Made by a program: the position numbers and the translations under genes. Below, in pieces: positions 1,422-10,958 of a stretch of 33,255 nt of DNA (position 1 is its first letter; each line of letters opens with the position of its first letter). The notes under the pieces were generated by a model. The model had not been told where the DNA came from, did not search any database, and was given only the letters and a program-made list of their open reading frames with translations. The stretch lies in the IMG/VR virus record IMGVR_UViG_2667527666_000008; one strand, written 5' to 3'. The stretch comes from a virus (Duplodnaviria; Heunggongvirae; Uroviricota; Caudoviricetes).

Positions 1422-3893
1422 TTAAAAATCAGCCTGATTTGGGATCAGTTTTTGCCAGATAGCTGAAACGTATTTTGCCTGGTAACGGGCGTCATCAAGT
1501 GCATTATGGCGCTCACCTTCGAATGGAATAGCCGTTCTGGCATCGAAGTCTATGGCTTTCCCCAGCTCAACGATTGTGCGTACATCGCGATCGTTGTAGT
1601 AACGCCACGGGCAGGGGATCCCCTGCCGTTCGTATGAACGGCGCAAAATCGTGTTGTCGAAGTTGGCTCCATTTCCCCAAACCTGAACAAAAAATTCACC
1701 GGAGTTTTCGTCGATAAATTCCCGCAATTGTAACAGTGCATCATCTAACGGGATTTCATCGGTCATAATGGCAGATTGCGCTTCGCGTGATTGCTTAAGC
1801 CACCATTTAATGGTGTCCCGATCAATGACTCCGCCAGCAGTTTCCAGATCGATAGTCTTACTAAATTCCGGTCCCATATCTCCGGTTTGCGGATCGAAAA
1901 ATATTGCACCTATTGAGATGATCGGGGCATCAGGATTTTTTCCCATGGTTTCAAGGTCGATCATTAGATGGTCACACGTCCTGCTGGTGGATGTGATTTC
2001 TTGATGACCGTTCACCTTAATTGAGTGATCTGCCGTCTCGCCAGTTTCATTATCGCTATCGTGATGCTGATTGCCGCCAGTGTTCTCCTTGTGTGGATGT
2101 TCAGCGCCTTCCATTTCCTCCGGATCATCTTCCTGAACTTCAGGCTGATACTCTTCATCGAATGTTTCCTGGTATGTTGCGTCGCCCATTACCGCGCCAC
2201 AATCAGGGCAGTTGCCGCCGCCGGTCTGACCGCAGGCGGTGCAGACTTTTTCCACTTCCTGTTGCGCCACTGATTCAGGCTGTTTCGTTTCTGGCTCGTT
2301 TTGTAACGCATTTGGGCTGTTTTGTTCCGCTTTCTGGTCGTTCTGTTCCGTTTCTTGCTGGTTCTGGTTCACAGAATCGCGGGTCTGGTTCCCCTTAACC
2401 CATTTCGGATCATTCGGGTCGCTAATCCCTTCAACAAATTCACCACGTGATACTGCAAGCAGTTCATCGGCGTCAGGCTGGCTGATATTGGCTGCCTGCA
2501 TAATTTTGTTTACTTCGTCAGCGGTAACTTTTACTGACCCTGGTTGTGCGGTCGTGTCAGATGCACCAGTATTTTGTTGTGAACCTGAGTATGTACCGTT
2601 TTTGCGGGCGAAATATTCTTCTTTCGTGATTTCAGTAGCCCCAGCAGACAGCGCCTTATCCAGACCAGAAAGTTTGTTTGCGCGACCGTATTTTTCGCCA
2701 TCCTTGTCGGTGAAGAGGAAGTAGAACGGCCCCTCACGTTCTACAGATGGTTCGACTTCCACTTTGCATTCGGTTTTTTCGTTGTCCGGAATTGCCGTTT
2801 CCACTGCATCAGTTTCTGGTACTGGCGACGAGAGAGTATCAGTTGCGCTCTGATTTGTTCCTTCATCTTCAAACACGCCCTTTGTAGTCAGGTATTCAGT
2901 AATGTATTTGTTCAGTGCCACAGGGTCTTTGTGAATGTCGATCGGACGTTCACGGACAAGGCCAAAAATAGTCTGGCGGTCGTAGCGAAGGGCATCAGGC
3001 TGTTTGCGCATTGATGCCGAGATACGCTTCCAGTCTTCGCGGTCGTTGTCGATAACTTCATTTTTTGCCCAGCGATGGATGCTGCCGTCAATGTTTCCGG
3101 CATCCACATCACCAGGCCAGAGAGCGTAGGCCAGTTCGTCATCCAGTGTTTTCCATGTCTGCTTGTATTCGCGATGAATGGCAGCAATGACCGGGTTGAT
3201 TTTTCCTGTTGAATTTTCAGTGTGCTGTTGATTGGCTCTGGCGCGGGCGAGATCAACAACAGACGTGTATTTTCCGGCTTCCTTGCGTTCACCTTCGCGA
3301 CGTTTTTTCCAGATGCGCATCTCTGCCTGAATTTCGGGCCATTTGGCACCAGGCTTACATTTATGCTTAACCCACCCGATGGCATGCAGCTTAAGCTCCG
3401 GATACATGGCGTTAACTTCTGGCATTTTCATCAACGCTTCAACGATATGTCCGTCGAATGTTGCCATGTCTTCCTGCAACAGTTCCTGCGCGCTAATCAC
3501 CATATCAACGGTGATGTTTTCACATGTGTCGAACTTAACCATGACAGCGTTCTGTACTTCAGGGGCCAGCTTGTCAAAAGTGACGTTCATCGGATCTGAT
3601 TCAGTCTCAACCGGGACAAAGGAAGCAGACGCCTCATCCCAGCGGTTTTCCTGCATATATTCAGCATCCCAGGAATCTAGGGCAGGGCGGGGTATACCGG
3701 GTTTATCCTCGCAGACAAGAAATTTATAAGCGCAGTCCTGAGCAGCCGGATAATGTTCCAGGAATTGCCAGTGAAATTTTGCGCGGGCGCGACGTTCATC
3801 ACCGGCTTCAATGGCAGTGGCTACAGCGACTGCACCTTCTTCCTTTATTGCCTGTTCGTCCGGAATGGCGGCGCAAATAAAGACTTTACTCAT
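1422..3893 (-). CDS. Large early protein with C-terminal DEDDh-type 3'-5' exonuclease domain
   Basis: 823-aa ORF; C-terminal ~180 aa carry the DnaQ-like motifs (DLETMG..., W.NG.NFD, H.ALDDARY); central Q/E-rich low-complexity linker and a CxxC-x14-CxxC zinc-ribbon-like motif. Occupies the position of the recombination exonuclease in lambdoid left arms. Confidence 0.6.
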   Translation of the reverse strand: MSKVFICAAIPDEQAIKEEGAVAVATAIEAGDERRARAKFHWQFLEHYPAAQDCAYKFLVCEDKPGIPRPALDSWDAEYMQENRWDEASASFVPVETESDPMNVTFDKLAPEVQNAVMVKFDTCENITVDMVISAQELLQEDMATFDGHIVEALMKMPEVNAMYPELKLHAIGWVKHKCKPGAKWPEIQAEMRIWKKRREGERKEAGKYTSVVDLARARANQQHTENSTGKINPVIAAIHREYKQTWKTLDDELAYALWPGDVDAGNIDGSIHRWAKNEVIDNDREDWKRISASMRKQPDALRYDRQTIFGLVRERPIDIHKDPVALNKYITEYLTTKGVFEDEGTNQSATDTLSSPVPETDAVETAIPDNEKTECKVEVEPSVEREGPFYFLFTDKDGEKYGRANKLSGLDKALSAGATEITKEEYFARKNGTYSGSQQNTGASDTTAQPGSVKVTADEVNKIMQAANISQPDADELLAVSRGEFVEGISDPNDPKWVKGNQTRDSVNQNQQETEQNDQKAEQNSPNALQNEPETKQPESVAQQEVEKVCTACGQTGGGNCPDCGAVMGDATYQETFDEEYQPEVQEDDPEEMEGAEHPHKENTGGNQHHDSDNETGETADHSIKVNGHQEITSTSRTCDHLMIDLETMGKNPDAPIISIGAIFFDPQTGDMGPEFSKTIDLETAGGVIDRDTIKWWLKQSREAQSAIMTDEIPLDDALLQLREFIDENSGEFFVQVWGNGANFDNTILRRSYERQGIPCPWRYYNDRDVRTIVELGKAIDFDARTAIPFEGERHNALDDARYQAKYVSAIWQKLIPNQADF

Positions 3894-6382: not shown

Positions 6383-6844
6383 CTACTGGTTACGTTTCTT
6401 TAGTGCCAGCATGTTCTCGAAGGCTTCCTCGTAGAGCTTGTTTAGTCCACGTAGCTGGTTAAGGAGTTTGGCTTTTTCTGACGCAGGTAGAATCTCGAAG
6501 AGGTTAAGTAACTCTGCCTGTTCTTCATTGACCAGCCTCCATCCTTTGCCTGAAAAGTTATCATCATAAGTATCTGATGATCTTACATAATTCATTAAGT
6601 CTTTAAGGTCTTCTCGAATGTCCTCTGGTTTTACCTTTAACAGAGCCGCAAATTTTAGCGCAGCGTCGGTATTTACCGGTATCTTGCCGTTCAGATACTG
6701 GCTAACGGTGCCTTGAGATTCGAATCCCAACAACTCAGCCGCCAGCTCTTGAGTCAGCTTCAGCTCTTTTTTTCTTGCATTCCATGCGGCTTTTAAATTC
6801 TTGCTCGCTTCTGGAGTTGCAATCACTTCGCGTGTTTTTTTCAT
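6383..6844 (-). CDS. Prophage repressor, XRE-family HTH (RacR/CI-like, no peptidase domain)
   Basis: 153-aa ORF with an N-terminal helix-turn-helix (QELAAELLGFESQGTVSQYLNG); divergent from a Cro-like gene; no Shine-Dalgarno before the ATG, as for leaderless lambda cI. Confidence 0.75.
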   Translation of the reverse strand: MKKTREVIATPEASKNLKAAWNARKKELKLTQELAAELLGFESQGTVSQYLNGKIPVNTDAALKFAALLKVKPEDIREDLKDLMNYVRSSDTYDDNFSGKGWRLVNEEQAELLNLFEILPASEKAKLLNQLRGLNKLYEEAFENMLALKKRNQ

Positions 6845-6945: not shown

Positions 6946-7227
6946 TTGGCTATGAACTTAAGAGACTATTTAAAAGAGAAACATATCACCCAGCTACAGT
7001 TTGGGAAGCTAACGGGTTTATCTCAGGTGCATGTAAGTCGAGTGCTGGGGGGCTATGAAAGATTCAGCCCTGAAAAAGCATTACGTGTTGCTGAAGTAAC
7101 GAATTTCGAGGTTACACCTCATGAACTCCGGCCTGATATTTACCCGAATCCAACCGACGGCTTACCTGTTGGATTCAAGGCTAACACACCAAATGCATCG
7201 GAGTTGATTCATGAAAATCAGGCATGA
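6946..7227 (+). CDS. Cro-like HTH regulator (YdaS-like)
   Basis: 93-aa ORF with an HTH (ITQLQFGKLTGLSQVHVSRVL); first gene of the rightward operon, opposite the repressor. Confidence 0.65.
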   Translation: MAMNLRDYLKEKHITQLQFGKLTGLSQVHVSRVLGGYERFSPEKALRVAEVTNFEVTPHELRPDIYPNPTDGLPVGFKANTPNASELIHENQA

Positions 7228-7636
7228 GCACATCCGCATGGCGATGAATGCCTGGGCGCATCCGGACGGTGAAAAAGTTCCGGCAGCTGAAATAACCCGG
7301 GCTTATTTTGAGCTTGGTATGACGTTCCCGGAATTATATGACGACAGCCATCCGGAAGCCCTGGCTCGCAATACCCAGAAAATTTTCCGCTGGGTGGAGA
7401 AAGACACTCCTGATGCGGTTAAAAAAATTCAGGCGTTGTTACCAGCGATCGAAAAAGCAATGCCGCCTCTGCTGGTGGCCCGAATGCGCAGCCACAGTTC
7501 AGCTTATTTTCGGGAGCTGGTGGAGACGCGGGAACGACTGGTGAGAGACGCTGATGATTTTGTCGCAGTGGCGATCGCTGGTTTCAACCAGATGAATCGT
7601 GGTGGCCCTGCAGGAAATATTGTGGCTGTGCATTGA
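7211..7636 (+). CDS. YdaT-like protein (CII-position regulator)
   Basis: 141-aa ORF overlapping the Cro-like gene stop; size, position and N-terminal 'MKIRHEHI' resemble Rac-type YdaT family proteins as recalled. Confidence 0.5.
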   Translation: MKIRHEHIRMAMNAWAHPDGEKVPAAEITRAYFELGMTFPELYDDSHPEALARNTQKIFRWVEKDTPDAVKKIQALLPAIEKAMPPLLVARMRSHSSAYFRELVETRERLVRDADDFVAVAIAGFNQMNRGGPAGNIVAVH

Positions 7637-7707
7637 CTCGCAATATTCATACCGGATCACTTCCGGCAATTTGTGAGTAAAAAGATTCGGTATCAGAAGA
7701 GGTGAGT

Positions 7708-8748
7708 ATGGCTAACGCCTGGCTCAGATTATGGCATGACATGCCAAATGACCCTAAGTGGCGAACAATTGCCAGGGTGTCAGGGCAGCCAATTGCAACA
7801 GTGATGGCAGTGTATATCCACCTTCTGGTGAGCGCGTCACGAAATGTCACGACATGTCACGGCGTGTCACTACGTGGTCACATTGATGTCACGACGGAAG
7901 ATTTAGCAAGTGCGCTTGATGTGACGGAAGAAGTAATTGATTCAATTTTACAGGCAATGCAGGGGCGGGTACTTGATGGAGATTTAATCACCGGATGGGA
8001 AAAACGCCAGGTACTGAAAGAGGACAATGGCAACGTTTCACAAACCGCGAAATCCCCGGCAGAGCGCAAGAGAGCGCAGCGCGAGAGGGAAAAATTACGA
8101 AAACAGAATGAGGGGTGTCACGACGAGTCACGCATATGTCACGACATGTCACGACGAGTCACGACAGATAAAGATACAGATAAAGAATTAAACCCCACAC
8201 ATAACGCGCACGTGCGCGAGAGTGCTCCGACCAGTGAGTCGAGTGGTACGCCGTTGCAGGCAGCAGAACCTGCATCCCTGGATGGACTGAGCGAACCCAT
8301 CGGGAAATTTCCGATGGTCGATGACTGGCATCCGTCGCCGGATTTTCGACGACGGGCTGCGTTGTGGGGGATGGCTTTGCCGGAGCCGGAATTTACACCT
8401 GCTGAACTTGCCGCTTTCCGGGACTACTGGGCAGCGGAGGGGAAAGTTTTCACGCAGGTTCAGTGGGAGCAGAAATTCGCCCGTCACGTAAATCACGTCA
8501 GGGCGCAGGTTAAGCCAGTCAGCAAGGGGGTAAACCATGCAGCAGCACCAGGTGGCACCGCATCACGGGCAGTTCAGGAAATTCGGGCAGCACGTGAGCA
8601 GTGGGAACGTGAAAACGGATTTATCAGCGACGGAAACGGTCTGGAAGCTGTGGGAACTCATGGGGGAGGTTTATTCGAACCGCTGGACCCAGAAGAACGG
8701 GGCCGCACCTTCGAAGCTCTGGATTGCACAGATTGGCGCGATGACTGA
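7708..8748 (+). CDS. Replication initiator / replisome organizer (O-like, DnaT-like C-terminal region)
   Basis: ATG at 7708 with a GAGGTGA ribosome-binding site; conserved N-terminus 'ANAWLRLWHDMPNDPKWRTIA'; iteron arrays lie inside the coding sequence as in lambda O; the true 3' end is uncertain because the P-like gene overlaps. Confidence 0.6.
   Translation: MANAWLRLWHDMPNDPKWRTIARVSGQPIATVMAVYIHLLVSASRNVTTCHGVSLRGHIDVTTEDLASALDVTEEVIDSILQAMQGRVLDGDLITGWEKRQVLKEDNGNVSQTAKSPAERKRAQREREKLRKQNEGCHDESRICHDMSRRVTTDKDTDKELNPTHNAHVRESAPTSESSGTPLQAAEPASLDGLSEPIGKFPMVDDWHPSPDFRRRAALWGMALPEPEFTPAELAAFRDYWAAEGKVFTQVQWEQKFARHVNHVRAQVKPVSKGVNHAAAPGGTASRAVQEIRAAREQWERENGFISDGNGLEAVGTHGGGLFEPLDPEERGRTFEALDCTDWRDD
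7836..7892. repeat. Iteron array 1 (six GTCAC-core repeats at 10-11 bp spacing)
   Basis: GTCAC cores at 7836, 7846, 7856, 7866, 7877 and 7888, mostly as (A/G)TGTCACGAC; helical-turn periodicity. Confidence 0.6.
8117..8190. repeat. Iteron array 2 plus AT-rich direct repeat (putative origin)
   Basis: GTCAC cores at 8117, 8127, 8138, 8148 and 8158 (10-11 bp spacing), immediately followed by AGATAAAG-ATAC-AGATAAAG-AATTAAA. Confidence 0.6.
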
Positions 8749-9202
8749 GCAGCAAATCCGACAGGTCTGCCGCCAGTGCATGGACCGCTGCCGGGCGGGT
8801 GAAACATGGCCTCCGGACCTGGCTGAGTTTGTGGCGCTGATTTCAGAAAGCGGGGCCAATCCATTTGGCCTGACGGTGGATGCTGTGATGGAGGAGTACC
8901 GCCGCTGGCGTGATGAGTCCTGGCGATATGACGGAAGCGACAAATATCCGTGGCCTCAGCCTGTGCTGTACCACATCTGCCTCGAAATGCGTACCAGAGG
9001 GATTGAGCGCCAGATGACGCAGGGTGAGTTAAAACGACTTGCGGAACGGCAACTGACGAAATGGGCAAAGCATGTTGGTAACGGGATGAGTGTTCCGCCA
9101 GTGCGACGACAACTGGAAGGGGCGAAACACCCGCAAGGGCCAACGCCAATTGAACGGCTGAAACAGGAATACGAACGCCGGAAGGCAGCTGGTTTTATTT
9201 GA
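8537..9202 (+). CDS. Replication protein P-like (helicase loader)
   Basis: Resembles lambda P as recalled (WPPDLAEFVAL... ~ PSPGQFVAWCREE; MTQGELKRLAERQL ~ LTDAELRRKAADEL); AAGGGGG ribosome-binding site before the ATG at 8537; overlaps the last ~210 bp of the O-like ORF in another frame; alternative start at 8741. Confidence 0.7.
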   Translation: MQQHQVAPHHGQFRKFGQHVSSGNVKTDLSATETVWKLWELMGEVYSNRWTQKNGAAPSKLWIAQIGAMTEQQIRQVCRQCMDRCRAGETWPPDLAEFVALISESGANPFGLTVDAVMEEYRRWRDESWRYDGSDKYPWPQPVLYHICLEMRTRGIERQMTQGELKRLAERQLTKWAKHVGNGMSVPPVRRQLEGAKHPQGPTPIERLKQEYERRKAAGFI

Positions 9203-9235
9203 ATCTGAGAAACGATTTTGTCGGAGGAAATTTTA

Positions 9236-9562
9236 ATGGAAACCGTATTTGACGCACTGAAAGCAATGGGAAAAGCCACATCGGTAGAACTGGCCGCGCG
9301 ACTTGATATCAGTCGTGAAGAGGTTCTCAACGAGCTGTGGGAACTCAAAAGAAAAGGCGTCGTTGATAAAACTGGTCACACCTGGTTTCTGGCTGGCGAA
9401 GGTGAATCCCGGGTAACCGAAGAGCGGCCAGTAAAATCTGAAGCACAGGATATGCTGACCGGGGAGGTCGAACAAAAAGTTACCGCAGACATGATGATTG
9501 AGTTTATCGGTCAGGATGGGGCTAAAACGTGTGAGGAACTGGCGGGTAAGTTCGGTGTCTGA
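9236..9562 (+). CDS. Small winged-helix-like protein, 3' end replaced by the IS junction
   Basis: GGAGGA ribosome-binding site before the ATG at 9236; the stop codon TGA is formed by the first bases of the IS left inverted repeat (TGAACC...). Confidence 0.5.
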   Translation: METVFDALKAMGKATSVELAARLDISREEVLNELWELKRKGVVDKTGHTWFLAGEGESRVTEERPVKSEAQDMLTGEVEQKVTADMMIEFIGQDGAKTCEELAGKFGV

Positions 9563-9601
9563 ACCGCCCCGGGTTTCCTGGAGAGTGTTTTATCTGTGAA
9601 C

Positions 9602-10492
9602 TCAGGCTGCCAGATCATCGTTTCCGATGGAAGCATAATAAGCTTTTTCTGCTTCTGCCGGAGGAGTATGGCCCAGCCTTTCCAGCAATCGTCGATTGTT
9701 ATACCAGTCCACCCACGTGAGTGTGGCCAGTTCCACTTCTGCACGGTTTTTCCAGCTCTTACGGTGTATTACCTCCGCTTTGTAAAGACCATTGATGCTC
9801 TCCGCCATCGCGTTGTCATACGAGTCGCCTGTACTTCCTGTTGATGCCAGTAATCCGGCTTCCTTAAGCCGCTGTGTGTAGGCCAGCGATACATACTGAG
9901 AACCTTTATCACTGTGATGGACCGTGCCGGACGGTCGACGGGCCCATAACGCCTGCTCCAGTGCATCCAGCACGAATGTCGTTTCCATGGACGATGAGAC
10001 CCGCCACCCCACGATGTATCCGGCAAACACATCAATGATGAACGCCACATAGACGAAGCCCCGCCATGTGCTGACGTAAGTAAAATCAGCCACCCACAGC
10101 TGGTCAGGTCGTTCTGCCACGAACTGACGGTTTACGCGGTCGCCTGCGGCAACGGCTTTCCGGCTGATGGTCGTACGGACCTTTTTACCCCGGAGAACAC
10201 CGGCAAGTCCCATAACCGCCATGAGACGTGCCACAGTGCATCTGGCCACTCTGATACCTTCCCGTAACAACTGACGCCAGACTTTACGCACACCGTATAC
10301 CTTGTGATTTTCATCGTATACGCGCTGTATCTCTTTCTTCAGCCAGTCATCGCGCTGCGCACGGGCACTGCGTTTATCCGGATGATGTCGCTGTTGCTGA
10401 CAGTGGTAATACGTTGACGGGGCAATATGCAGTTCGCTGCATAGCGGTCCGACCCCGTACTGCTCACGCAGCTTATCCAGCAGTGGCATCAT
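9602..10492 (-). CDS. IS3-family transposase OrfB (DDE integrase core)
   Basis: 296-aa ORF with DDE catalytic signatures (WVADFTYV..., HSDKGSQY..., [15 protein letters not shown]); overlaps OrfA by 4 bp. Confidence 0.9.
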
Positions 10493-10815
10493 TTTTTCCA
10501 GAGGCGGTCGAACTCCGCCTTCGCAAAATAAGCGGAAGCCTGGCGAAGGATATCGTTACTGCGGCGCAGTTCACGATTTTCACGTTCCAGCTCTTTCAGA
10601 CGCTGACGTTCAGCGGTGGTGAGCCCGCCATCACCGCCCCCGGTATCCCGCTCATGCTGGCGAACCCAGACACGCAGAGTCTCCGGCGTACAGCCAATCT
10701 TTGGAGCAATGGAACAAATTGTCGCCCATTGTGAGTCATATTCGCTCTGACTTTCCAGAACCATACGGACTGCCCGTTGACGGACTTCGGGGGAAAAACG
10801 AGTATTTTTAGTCAT
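10489..10815 (-). CDS. IS3-family transposase OrfA (HTH)
   Basis: 108-aa ORF with an HTH and leucine-zipper-like C-terminus ([18 protein letters not shown]). Confidence 0.9.
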
Positions 10816-10958
10816 CCTGTTTACCTCTTTCTCAGGAAGTTTAGTCTCCAGGATTCCCGGGGCGGTTCAGTACTCGCAAGGTTGCTTCCACGCTGGCGGT
10901 GGTAACCGCAACGGGGCGGCTGGCACGCGTTAATCAGAACGGTAAATTTCGTTACTGC

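Follow-up and report, generated by a model that had tools for sequence, protein, structure and literature searches.

The 33,255 nucleotide (nt) Caudoviricetes record IMGVR_UViG_2667527666_000008, referred to throughout as the window, includes the early-right region of a lambdoid prophage of the Rac/Qin type, in which two plus strand replication genes share a stretch of DNA in different reading frames. The upstream gene encodes an 'O-like' initiator with a DnaT domain and extends from 7702 or 7708 to 8748 (348 or 346 amino acids (aa), respectively), the GTG at 7702 being the earliest start possible in the open reading frame (ORF) and the ATG at 7708 being that chosen by RefSeq; its frame, here termed O, remains open up to the TGA at 8746-8748. 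The downstream gene encodes a P-like helicase loader and, in its full-length reading, comprises positions 8537-9202 (221 aa), starting from an ATG at 8537 that lies 6 nt 3' of the Shine-Dalgarno (SD) sequence AAGGGGG (8524-8530) and just after a P-frame TAA at 8531-8533. The dual-coding segment consequently spans 212 nt (8537-8748), with the codons of P beginning 1 nt after those of O. A first-pass annotation of this DNA, made from the sequence without database searches, had reported a strong ribosome-binding site and ATG at 8537, an O frame open to 8748 and an out-of-frame overlap of about 210 bp, each of which was found to be accurate, but could not choose between an initiator that in reality ends earlier, its tail being a chance open frame or the result of a frameshift, and a genuinely overprinted region. 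Comparison with homologs, together with the manner in which selection is partitioned between the two frames, favours the last of these: it is likely that the overlap represents a genuine, conserved out-of-frame gene pair belonging to the replication module of this prophage.

Profile matches place the P-like protein in the lambda P family, with helicase loading as its predicted function. The Pfam model Phage_lambda_P (PF06992) aligns with aa 55-188 of the 221 aa protein at 59.3 bits, relative to a cut-off of 26, and PHROG 109, described as 'P-like helicase loader', with aa 19-221 (profile positions 22-236, E = 2e-63), while no NCBIfam model matched the protein. When PDB sequences were searched with phmmer, residues 83-202 of the 233 aa lambda P were paired with residues 72-193 of the query (8v9t_V, E = 0.0035). 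A Foldseek search using the predicted structure returned lambda P chains from DnaB-lambda P complexes as its top matches, aligned over nearly their full length (9oa1_Z, E = 1.3e-5, probability 1.00, 223 columns), with a TM-score of only 0.40. Homologs sharing 42-70% identity with it, found in Klebsiella, Enterobacter, Salmonella, Raoultella, Symbiopectobacterium and other genera, are 212-223 aa in length and align end to end over the 221 aa, and the similarity to lambda P accordingly begins well upstream of the ATG at 8741, as the first-pass annotation had proposed. As in lambda, the gene is located directly 3' of an initiator gene that carries iteron-like repeats.

The AlphaFold (AF2) model of P, which has a mean predicted local distance difference test (pLDDT) score of 70.6, consists of a disordered leader (aa 1-28, pLDDT < 50) followed by helices predicted at residues 29-46, 48-54, 60-67, 71-86 and 95-105; M69, the residue encoded by the ATG at 8741-8743, falls between the helices 60-67 and 71-86 of a single domain. 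Upstream of M69, residues W50, K53, N54, G55, P58 and W62 are invariant in homologs down to 42% identity. The motif encoded within 8651-8745 comprises W39, M42, Y46, R49, W50, K53, N54, G55, P58 and W62, and the conserved block as a whole extends from W36 (8642). An exhaustive search identified many proteins whose match to P, at 20-40% identity, is confined to aa ~25-110 and which share the motif LWxxMxExYGxxW..G..P...W....WPPxLPEF, in which W39, G55 and W62 are nearly invariant; by this evidence, aa ~29-105 form an old and widespread domain. Orphan P genes, without an overlapping initiator, are present in two Erwinia genomes and start 11-27 codons before the residue equivalent to W36. Both are intact, one being adjacent to a PTS transporter gene (L039, 2974..3543, 189 aa) and the other to a ttcA-like gene (L032, 2992..3618, 208 aa), and they could represent either remnants of prophages or copies that have been domesticated. 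In lambda, removal of P residues 9-86 results in the loss of both replication function and P lethality (PMC3640518). A 153 aa protein starting at M69 would have no counterpart of lambda P residues 1-80, whereas the 221 aa form has the architecture of lambda P. It is almost certain that P is encoded upstream of 8741, and hence that two frames are in use over at least ~100 nt.

The distribution of the overlap was investigated using 38 loci retrieved from contigs representing one genome per species and 80 retrieved from viral contigs, along with a set of 21 lineage representatives having less than 85% P identity to each other. It is retained in 29 divergent loci, always in the same relative frame and with a length of 149-224 nt, in at least 15 genera of Enterobacterales (Escherichia, Citrobacter, Enterobacter, Klebsiella, Pluralibacter, Phytobacter, Kluyvera, Salmonella, Scandinavium, Pectobacterium, Buttiauxella, Erwinia, Serratia, Samsonia, Limnobaculum, Rouxiella); in the metagenomic phage contig L128, the P protein of which is 41% identical to that in the window, the overlap is 227 nt. 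The initiator stop is mostly situated 65-80 nt past the W50 codon, with exceptions at 29-32 nt (L026 and L040) and 101 nt (L025). Its exact position, which in many genera is 65 nt beyond the W50 codon, was considered as a possible conserved signal and discounted, as P is rich in GA-starting codons after codon 69 and an early stop is to be expected there. The background density of stops is 0.042 per codon for the P frame within the body of the initiator gene and 0.051 per codon for the O frame within the body of P. No description of this overlap was found in the literature, of which coverage was incomplete.

An assembly frameshift is excluded as the source of the overlap. The DNA from 7650 to 9250 is 100% identical in Escherichia coli 118UI and NZ_OZ121072, and a P protein with 100% identity is encoded by E. 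albertii NBRC 107761 and by more than 30 IMG/VR contigs. Among 51 close relatives, indels are multiples of three bases save for two one-base indels in single sequences, one of them in L089, where the O frame is cut to 112 codons; the initiator gene of L004 is flagged as frameshifted by RefSeq. The suggestion that the O-like gene ends earlier, or owes its tail to a frameshift, was therefore not upheld, there being neither an earlier stop nor an indel relative to many independent genomes, while the codons that would terminate the O frame are avoided, as described below.

The same 51 sequences, all of at least 86% nucleotide identity, were used to construct a neighbour-joining tree, on which 659 substitutions were reconstructed by parsimony (kappa ~3.2). 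Each event was classed by its effect in both frames, and rates were calculated relative to synonymous changes outside the overlap. In the C-terminal half of the initiator gene outside the overlap, there were 152 nonsynonymous and 105 synonymous events (rates of 0.385 and 0.688, omega ~0.56), compared with 76 and 239 in the body of P outside the overlap (0.16 and 1.25, omega ~0.13). Between 8540 and 8650, changes that were silent in O but altered P occurred at a rate of 0.53 (25 events), those silent in P but altering O at a rate of 0.34 (14 events), and those altering both proteins at a rate of 0.09 (6 events). Between 8651 and 8745, by contrast, changes silent in P and altering O occurred at a rate of 1.14 (36 events), those silent in O and altering P at a rate of 0.026 (a single event), and those altering both at a rate of 0.03 (2 events). 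Constraint is thus partitioned along the overlap: O is the constrained reading in 8540-8650, given its rate of 0.34 and the conservation there of the O motif ASRAVQ(E/Q)IRAAREQW, and P is the constrained reading in 8651-8745, given its rate of 0.026, the dominant frame switching about halfway along. Purifying selection is clear for P in 8651-8745, similar in O across 8540-8650 to that on the rest of the initiator, weak for the P leader and absent, when considered site by site, for the O tail. No P-frame stop arose in 8540-8650, relative to ~4 expected were the P frame non-coding (as back-calculated from exposure weights).

This division corresponds to the predicted structures of the two proteins. 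In the first half of the overlap (8540-8650), the O reading yields a linker together with the conserved helix ASRAVQEIRAAREQWERE (8560-8613), opposite the variable, predicted-disordered leader of P (aa 2-38); in the second half (8651-8745), the P frame encodes the conserved helices of its N-terminal domain, opposite a predicted-disordered, acidic tail of the initiator. The AF2 model of the C-terminal 154 residues of the initiator comprises a confidently predicted DnaT domain, a disordered linker, the same helix at low confidence and a disordered tail (pLDDT < 50), and the SD and ATG of P are located exactly where the disordered linker is encoded. Taken together, the two models place every ordered stretch of one protein opposite a disordered stretch of its partner within the overlap.

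The start of P is unsettled across databases. RefSeq, through PGAP, annotates the initiator at 7708..8748 as 'DnaT-like ssDNA-binding domain-containing protein' and 'replication protein P' at the equivalent of 8741..9202 (153 aa) in all six E. coli records examined, the ATG of M69 then overlapping the initiator stop in ATGACTGA; in one phage record P starts later still (140 aa). RefSeq entries for P from Salmonella, Citrobacter and Klebsiella are 180-181 aa long and start at the equivalent of M42, the internal ATG at 8660-8662, which might also serve as a secondary start, and some other database entries are 221 aa. In all of the overlapping divergent loci, an SD and ATG are found 39-50 codons before W50, with GGAGG, GAGGT or GGGGG 5-10 nt 5' of the ATG; the codons between the P ATG and W36 are almost unalignable, yet the position of the SD and ATG is kept. 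An ATG accompanied by an SD match of at least four bases is present in 17 of the 21 lineage representatives, where the chance expectation is 0.023 per 12-codon window. A P-frame stop precedes the ATG by 0-16 codons in 22 of the 29 loci, yet in each of the 29 the frame remains open from the ATG. Likewise all 21 representatives are stop-free in the P frame from the ATG equivalent to 8537, the joint probability of which, estimated by codon resampling given the amino acid sequence of the initiator, is 8e-4. Folding of 8480-8600 revealed no significant RNA structure around the P start (z = -0.05), thereby giving no support to the idea that the SD is masked and then opened by upstream translation, and so suggesting independent initiation at 8537 rather than coupling by unmasking. 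Taken from comparative sequence, these features make 8537 the likely start of P. Of the two features of homologs that the first-pass annotation had named as counter-evidence, an initiator C-terminus reaching 8748 and a P start at 8741, the former was found, but the latter was not, with conserved residues, a predicted helical domain and the SD and ATG all being upstream of 8741.

Evidence of selection on the initiator tail comes from codon choice in P. A stop arises in the O frame when a T-ending P codon precedes a codon starting AA, AG or GA. When synonymous codons were resampled on each representative's own P sequence, the chance of the O frame remaining open through P codon 69 was 0.08-0.41, yet it is open in 19 of the 21 (Poisson-binomial tail 6e-10). 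T-ending codons occupy 2 of 78 positions at which an O stop would result, compared with 93 of 398 elsewhere in the segment (Fisher p = 2e-6), and 27% of positions in the same context within the body of P. The tail also has a net charge of -2 to -8 in all 29 loci, below the expectation for the respective P sequence with random synonymous codons in each of the 29 (mean z = -2.2). This acidity can be attributed to the enrichment of G at P third positions, which stands at 49% in the overlap relative to 33% in the body of P. The selection detected on the tail concerns the open frame and the acidic composition only, and on these grounds the tail is probably maintained by selection. That it should be a chance open frame, as the first-pass annotation had allowed, fits poorly with the resampling results for either frame and with both being open in about 30 divergent loci.

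We infer both the start at 8537 and the production of the two proteins from comparison of sequences, and several observations weigh against that start. The SD in the window is AAGGGGG and not the canonical GGAGG; constraint on the P leader (aa 1-35) is weak, and disorder is predicted for it; and the conserved ATG of M42 could be the start, or a second start. The overlap might instead be only 89 nt long, with P starting at M42 (8660) as a protein of 180 aa and 8537-8659 encoding the initiator alone. Such an arrangement would be compatible with the presence of the M42 ATG in 20 of the 21 representatives, with the 180-181 aa RefSeq entries for 'replication protein P' in three genera, with the disorder predicted for P aa 1-28 and with amino acid changes accumulating in the leader at ~0.5-0.8 of the neutral rate. 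It nevertheless appears quite improbable, as W36 and W39 are upstream of M42 yet conserved, including in the orphan P genes and the homologs of 20-40% identity, the predicted helix 29-46 would be cut, the SD of M42 is weak or just 2-3 nt from the ATG, and both the conserved SD and ATG at 8537 and the subsequent frame, in which none of the 659 events created a stop, would be left unexplained. The alternative implied by RefSeq is that P starts at 8741, overlapping the initiator by 8 nt, with the P frame upstream being open by chance. PGAP makes this choice consistently in the E. coli records, the overlap between lambda O and P is itself only 4 nt, and ATGA-type junctions are typical of coupled phage genes. 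Even so, 8741 is most likely not the real start of P, and this explanation is extremely unlikely, being already contradicted by comparative sequence data: strongly selected, invariant P residues are encoded upstream, where the nonsynonymous rate is 0.026 of neutral; residue 69 is encoded by TTC, TGC, TGT, CTC, CTG or TTG, without an SD, in 9 of the 21 representatives; the Pfam, PHROG and lambda P alignments all reach upstream; and the 153 aa form would lack most of the segment whose deletion inactivates lambda P.

The remaining doubts concern the tail and the integrity of the frames. The last ~32 residues of the initiator have no site-specific amino acid constraint, changing at ~0.9 of the P-body synonymous rate (estimated 95% range ~0.6-1.3). 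Many of them are dictated by invariant P residues, a P 'RW' specifying an O 'PL' and a P 'KNG' an O 'EE[R/W]', and the tails of L026 and L040 end ~12 codons sooner. Between lineages, identity at fourfold sites is 0.38 in the overlap and 0.34 in the body of P, both near saturation and hence uninformative on constraint in the tail, and the resampling tests treat representatives as independent at synonymous sites, a treatment justified only by that near-saturation. The last ~32-70 residues of the initiator could accordingly be a functionless run-on, with P the only meaningful reading in 8651-8745. The neutral rate of P-silent, O-changing substitutions, the near-saturation of synonymous sites in both regions, the predicted disorder, the earlier stops in two loci and the flipping of a tail residue between R and W through silent changes to Asn or Ile codons in P are all in keeping with this explanation, to which we attach a low though appreciable probability; it would not account for an O frame open in 19 of 21 representatives, for T-ending codons being avoided only where an O stop would result, or for the acidic excess and third-position G enrichment. 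A sequencing or assembly frameshift, a pseudogene state or programmed frameshifting to an initiator-P fusion would be a more radical departure. PHROG 15931 (482 positions, 'unknown function') matches the initiator at positions 1-347 and P at 280-482, such that some of its members may be fusions or mis-joined ORFs, a few contigs (P0119, P0103) contain in-frame DnaT-domain-P ORFs, and a run of five to seven G residues lies just 5' of the ATG at 8537. Against this very improbable set of explanations stand the identical sequence in many independent assemblies, the near-absence of indels other than multiples of three, the lack of an X XXY YYZ slippery site in 8524-8560 when inspected by eye, and the P-frame TAA immediately before the ATG in the window; in P0119 and P0103, the frame is disrupted again farther downstream, so that they look like decayed copies. 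P0084, a deletion derivative in which a DUF1376-type initiator is fused directly to P residue ~104, likewise has the appearance of a decayed prophage copy.

The initiator has an N-terminal replisome-organizer or origin-binding part, followed by the C-terminal DnaT-like domain, the helix and the acidic tail. Its DnaT-like single-stranded DNA-binding domain (8308-8508, aa 203-269) is outside the overlap, matching Pfam PF17948 at 64 bits and being modelled with pLDDT 86-90. PHROG 1408/3729, 'replication initiation protein', and the NCBIfam DnaT model match aa 192-278, the latter across profile positions 80-166 and under its equivalog cut-off. No lambda-O-type Pfam domain was matched by the 348 aa protein, the DnaT domain being the only one found, and the PHROG families that it matches are different ones, named 'replication initiation protein' or 'replisome organizer'. 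The initiator is thus predicted to work like O while standing outside the O family, and groups by its domain content with DnaT-domain initiators such as YdaU and DopC. Most of the sequences recovered in a homolog search with its C-terminal half were partial E. coli entries, which contributed little to the set of loci described above.

Within the initiator gene are two clusters of iteron-like GTCACG repeats with a 10 nt phasing, separated by ~270 nt: cluster 1 occupies 7834-7883, and cluster 2 (8116-8175) is followed by two copies of the direct repeat ACAGATAAAGA, the whole spanning 8116-8186. Their translation reads ...CHDESRICHDMSRRVTTDKDTDK... in the protein. On the basis of these putative iterons, the repeat region is probably the prophage origin, with cluster 2 likely forming its core. 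Just after the second cluster there is a mosaic junction at ~8166-8182 (initiator residues ~KDTDKELNPTHNA). Many phages and E. coli prophages match only 3' of this junction, over the C-terminal half of the initiator and P, and other sequences match only 5' of it (positions 1-537 of a query beginning at window position 7650). In L007, a DUF1376-type N-terminal part is joined to the same initiator C-terminal half, and in enterotoxigenic E. coli H10407 the same initiator N-terminal part precedes a different C-terminus, with P being absent.

In its organisation the pair resembles O and P of lambda, in which an initiator with iterons inside its own gene is directly followed by the helicase loader, but the lambda genes overlap by 4 nt (ATGA) in place of 212 nt. 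According to Yates et al. (1977), as represented by the citation in PMC3640518, a read-through product of lambda O, termed O', terminates within the sequence that encodes the N-terminal part of P, in another frame. The next stops in the O frame of lambda are 36 and 63 codons past O. A form of extension into P exists in both systems, but that of lambda requires read-through of a UGA, whereas the ~70 codon extension described here is constitutive. Furthermore, lambda O is 1 nt behind P while the initiator in the window is 1 nt ahead of it, and the O' extension is basic where the initiator tail is acidic; these differences in relative frame and charge rule out homology between the two extensions, leaving an analogy only. 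The end of lambda O (L127, 927-986), ...KLDLTNTDWIYGVDL, shares a faint LDxxxDW pattern with the ends of the initiator, ...ALDCTDWRDD (8719-8745), and of a Klebsiella relative, ...VDCPDWIDE. The similarity between ...TNTDWIYGVDL in lambda and ...LDCTDWRDD is weak, with W alternating with R, through silent P changes, or with F elsewhere, and may mean nothing.

The same pairing of domains has been described in DopC and DopE, an O-like protein bearing a C-terminal DnaT motif and an adjacent lambda-P-family protein found in Cellvibrionales and Oceanospirillales (Brezellec et al. 2017, PMC5509034). As far as can be judged from the description in that paper, which makes no mention of an overlap, these differ in being resident chromosomal genes without iterons, as opposed to genes of a prophage with iteron-like repeats. 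The Rac prophage of E. coli K-12 is similar to the window in having genes for a YdaS-like helix-turn-helix (HTH) protein and YdaT upstream of an initiator of the YdaU or 'primosomal protein I' type, in the order ydaS-ydaT-ydaU-ydaV, but differs in that YdaV is presumably a DnaC/IstB-type loader and not of the P type. The phage Rac-SA53 variant does have a P-type gene, annotated from the start equivalent to 8741. Out-of-frame overprinting is itself well known in phages and other viruses, through examples such as D/E and A/B of phiX174, the MS2 lysis gene and lambda Rz/Rz1, and one of the readings in overprinted genes is usually disordered and compositionally biased. Two proteins are in each case encoded by one stretch of DNA in different frames, but the overlap in the window is terminal, tail over head, rather than nested, it joins partner replication proteins, and its dominant frame switches midway.

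Upstream of the initiator gene, the window carries a repressor-like HTH gene (6383..6844) on the minus strand, a YdaS-type HTH gene (6946..7227) and a gene of the YdaT family (7211..7636). Downstream of P, a DUF1627 gene has been split by an insertion sequence, leaving an ORF of 114 aa (9218..9562) where the uninterrupted copy in E. coli 118UI encodes 256 aa (771 nt). The insertion sequence is an IS3-family element of ~1.31 kb (9559-10870) with 26 nt terminal inverted repeats that are 92% complementary, and includes on the minus strand orfA (10489..10815, HTH_Tnp_1) and orfB (9602..10492, rve). Antisense ORFs of 116 aa (8188..8538) and 163 aa (8658..9149) are present on the minus strand opposite the initiator and P. 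These were rejected as genes, the longest antisense open stretch ranging from 68 to 178 codons across lineages, and are probably due to chance.

A mechanism consistent with these observations would involve both genes being translated from one early rightward transcript, with initiator ribosomes reading through to the TGA at 8746-8748 and others starting independently at the internal SD and the ATG at 8537 to produce the 221 aa lambda-P-type loader. Order in one protein would be paired with disorder in the other, the initiator helix being encoded over the P leader and the first three helices of the P domain over the initiator tail. In 8651-8745, the P N-terminal domain is the older reading, as it is present without the overlap and in very distant relatives, and the initiator ORF was probably extended across it to give the overprinted tail; the P leader, conversely, would have been overprinted on the linker and helix of the initiator. 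The acidic tail might have a role of low sequence specificity, such as contacting P, DnaB or a DNA-binding surface. This is a guess prompted by lambda, where the C-terminal region of O partners the N-terminal region of P. The arrangement may also keep P with the C-terminal half of the initiator, in line with the mosaic junction at ~8166-8182 and with the matches, to prophages having a different initiator N-terminal part, that run on from it through P.

The systematic error in the RefSeq start of P is exposed by the overlap. Relative to the 221 aa reading, the RefSeq loader is 68 residues too short in E. coli and ~41 too short in Salmonella, Klebsiella and Citrobacter, with the loss of part of a conserved domain, such that cloning or modelling based upon the database entries would use the wrong protein. 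The region has a match in 2,564 of 5,426 complete E. coli genomes, covering at least 80% of it in 658. The overlap causes gene callers to lose either the head of P or the entire initiator; in the public gene call for contig L128, a 724 nt gap is left where the ORF of a 348 aa DnaT-domain initiator (1681..2727) is located, apparently because this ORF overlaps P by 227 nt.

The pair is a new and well-supported example of overprinted phage genes, with an unusually clear partition of constraint, and provides a clean natural instance of two essential partner proteins sharing DNA. A further, tentative and rather unlikely possibility is that the 212 nt segment encodes both sides of the contact between initiator and loader, with the helix and tail of the initiator facing the N-terminal domain of P. 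This would fit with the mosaic junction, 5' of which the origin-binding N-terminal part of the initiator appears to be exchanged freely while its C-terminal half travels with P. Were it correct, the determinants of specificity of both partners would reside in the same nucleotides, would be inseparable by the shuffling of lambdoid modules and would have to co-evolve base by base. The overlap thereby raises the testable idea that the acidic tail of the initiator and the N-terminal domain of the loader may be functionally linked, in the way that the corresponding ends of O (C-terminal) and P (N-terminal) are in lambda.

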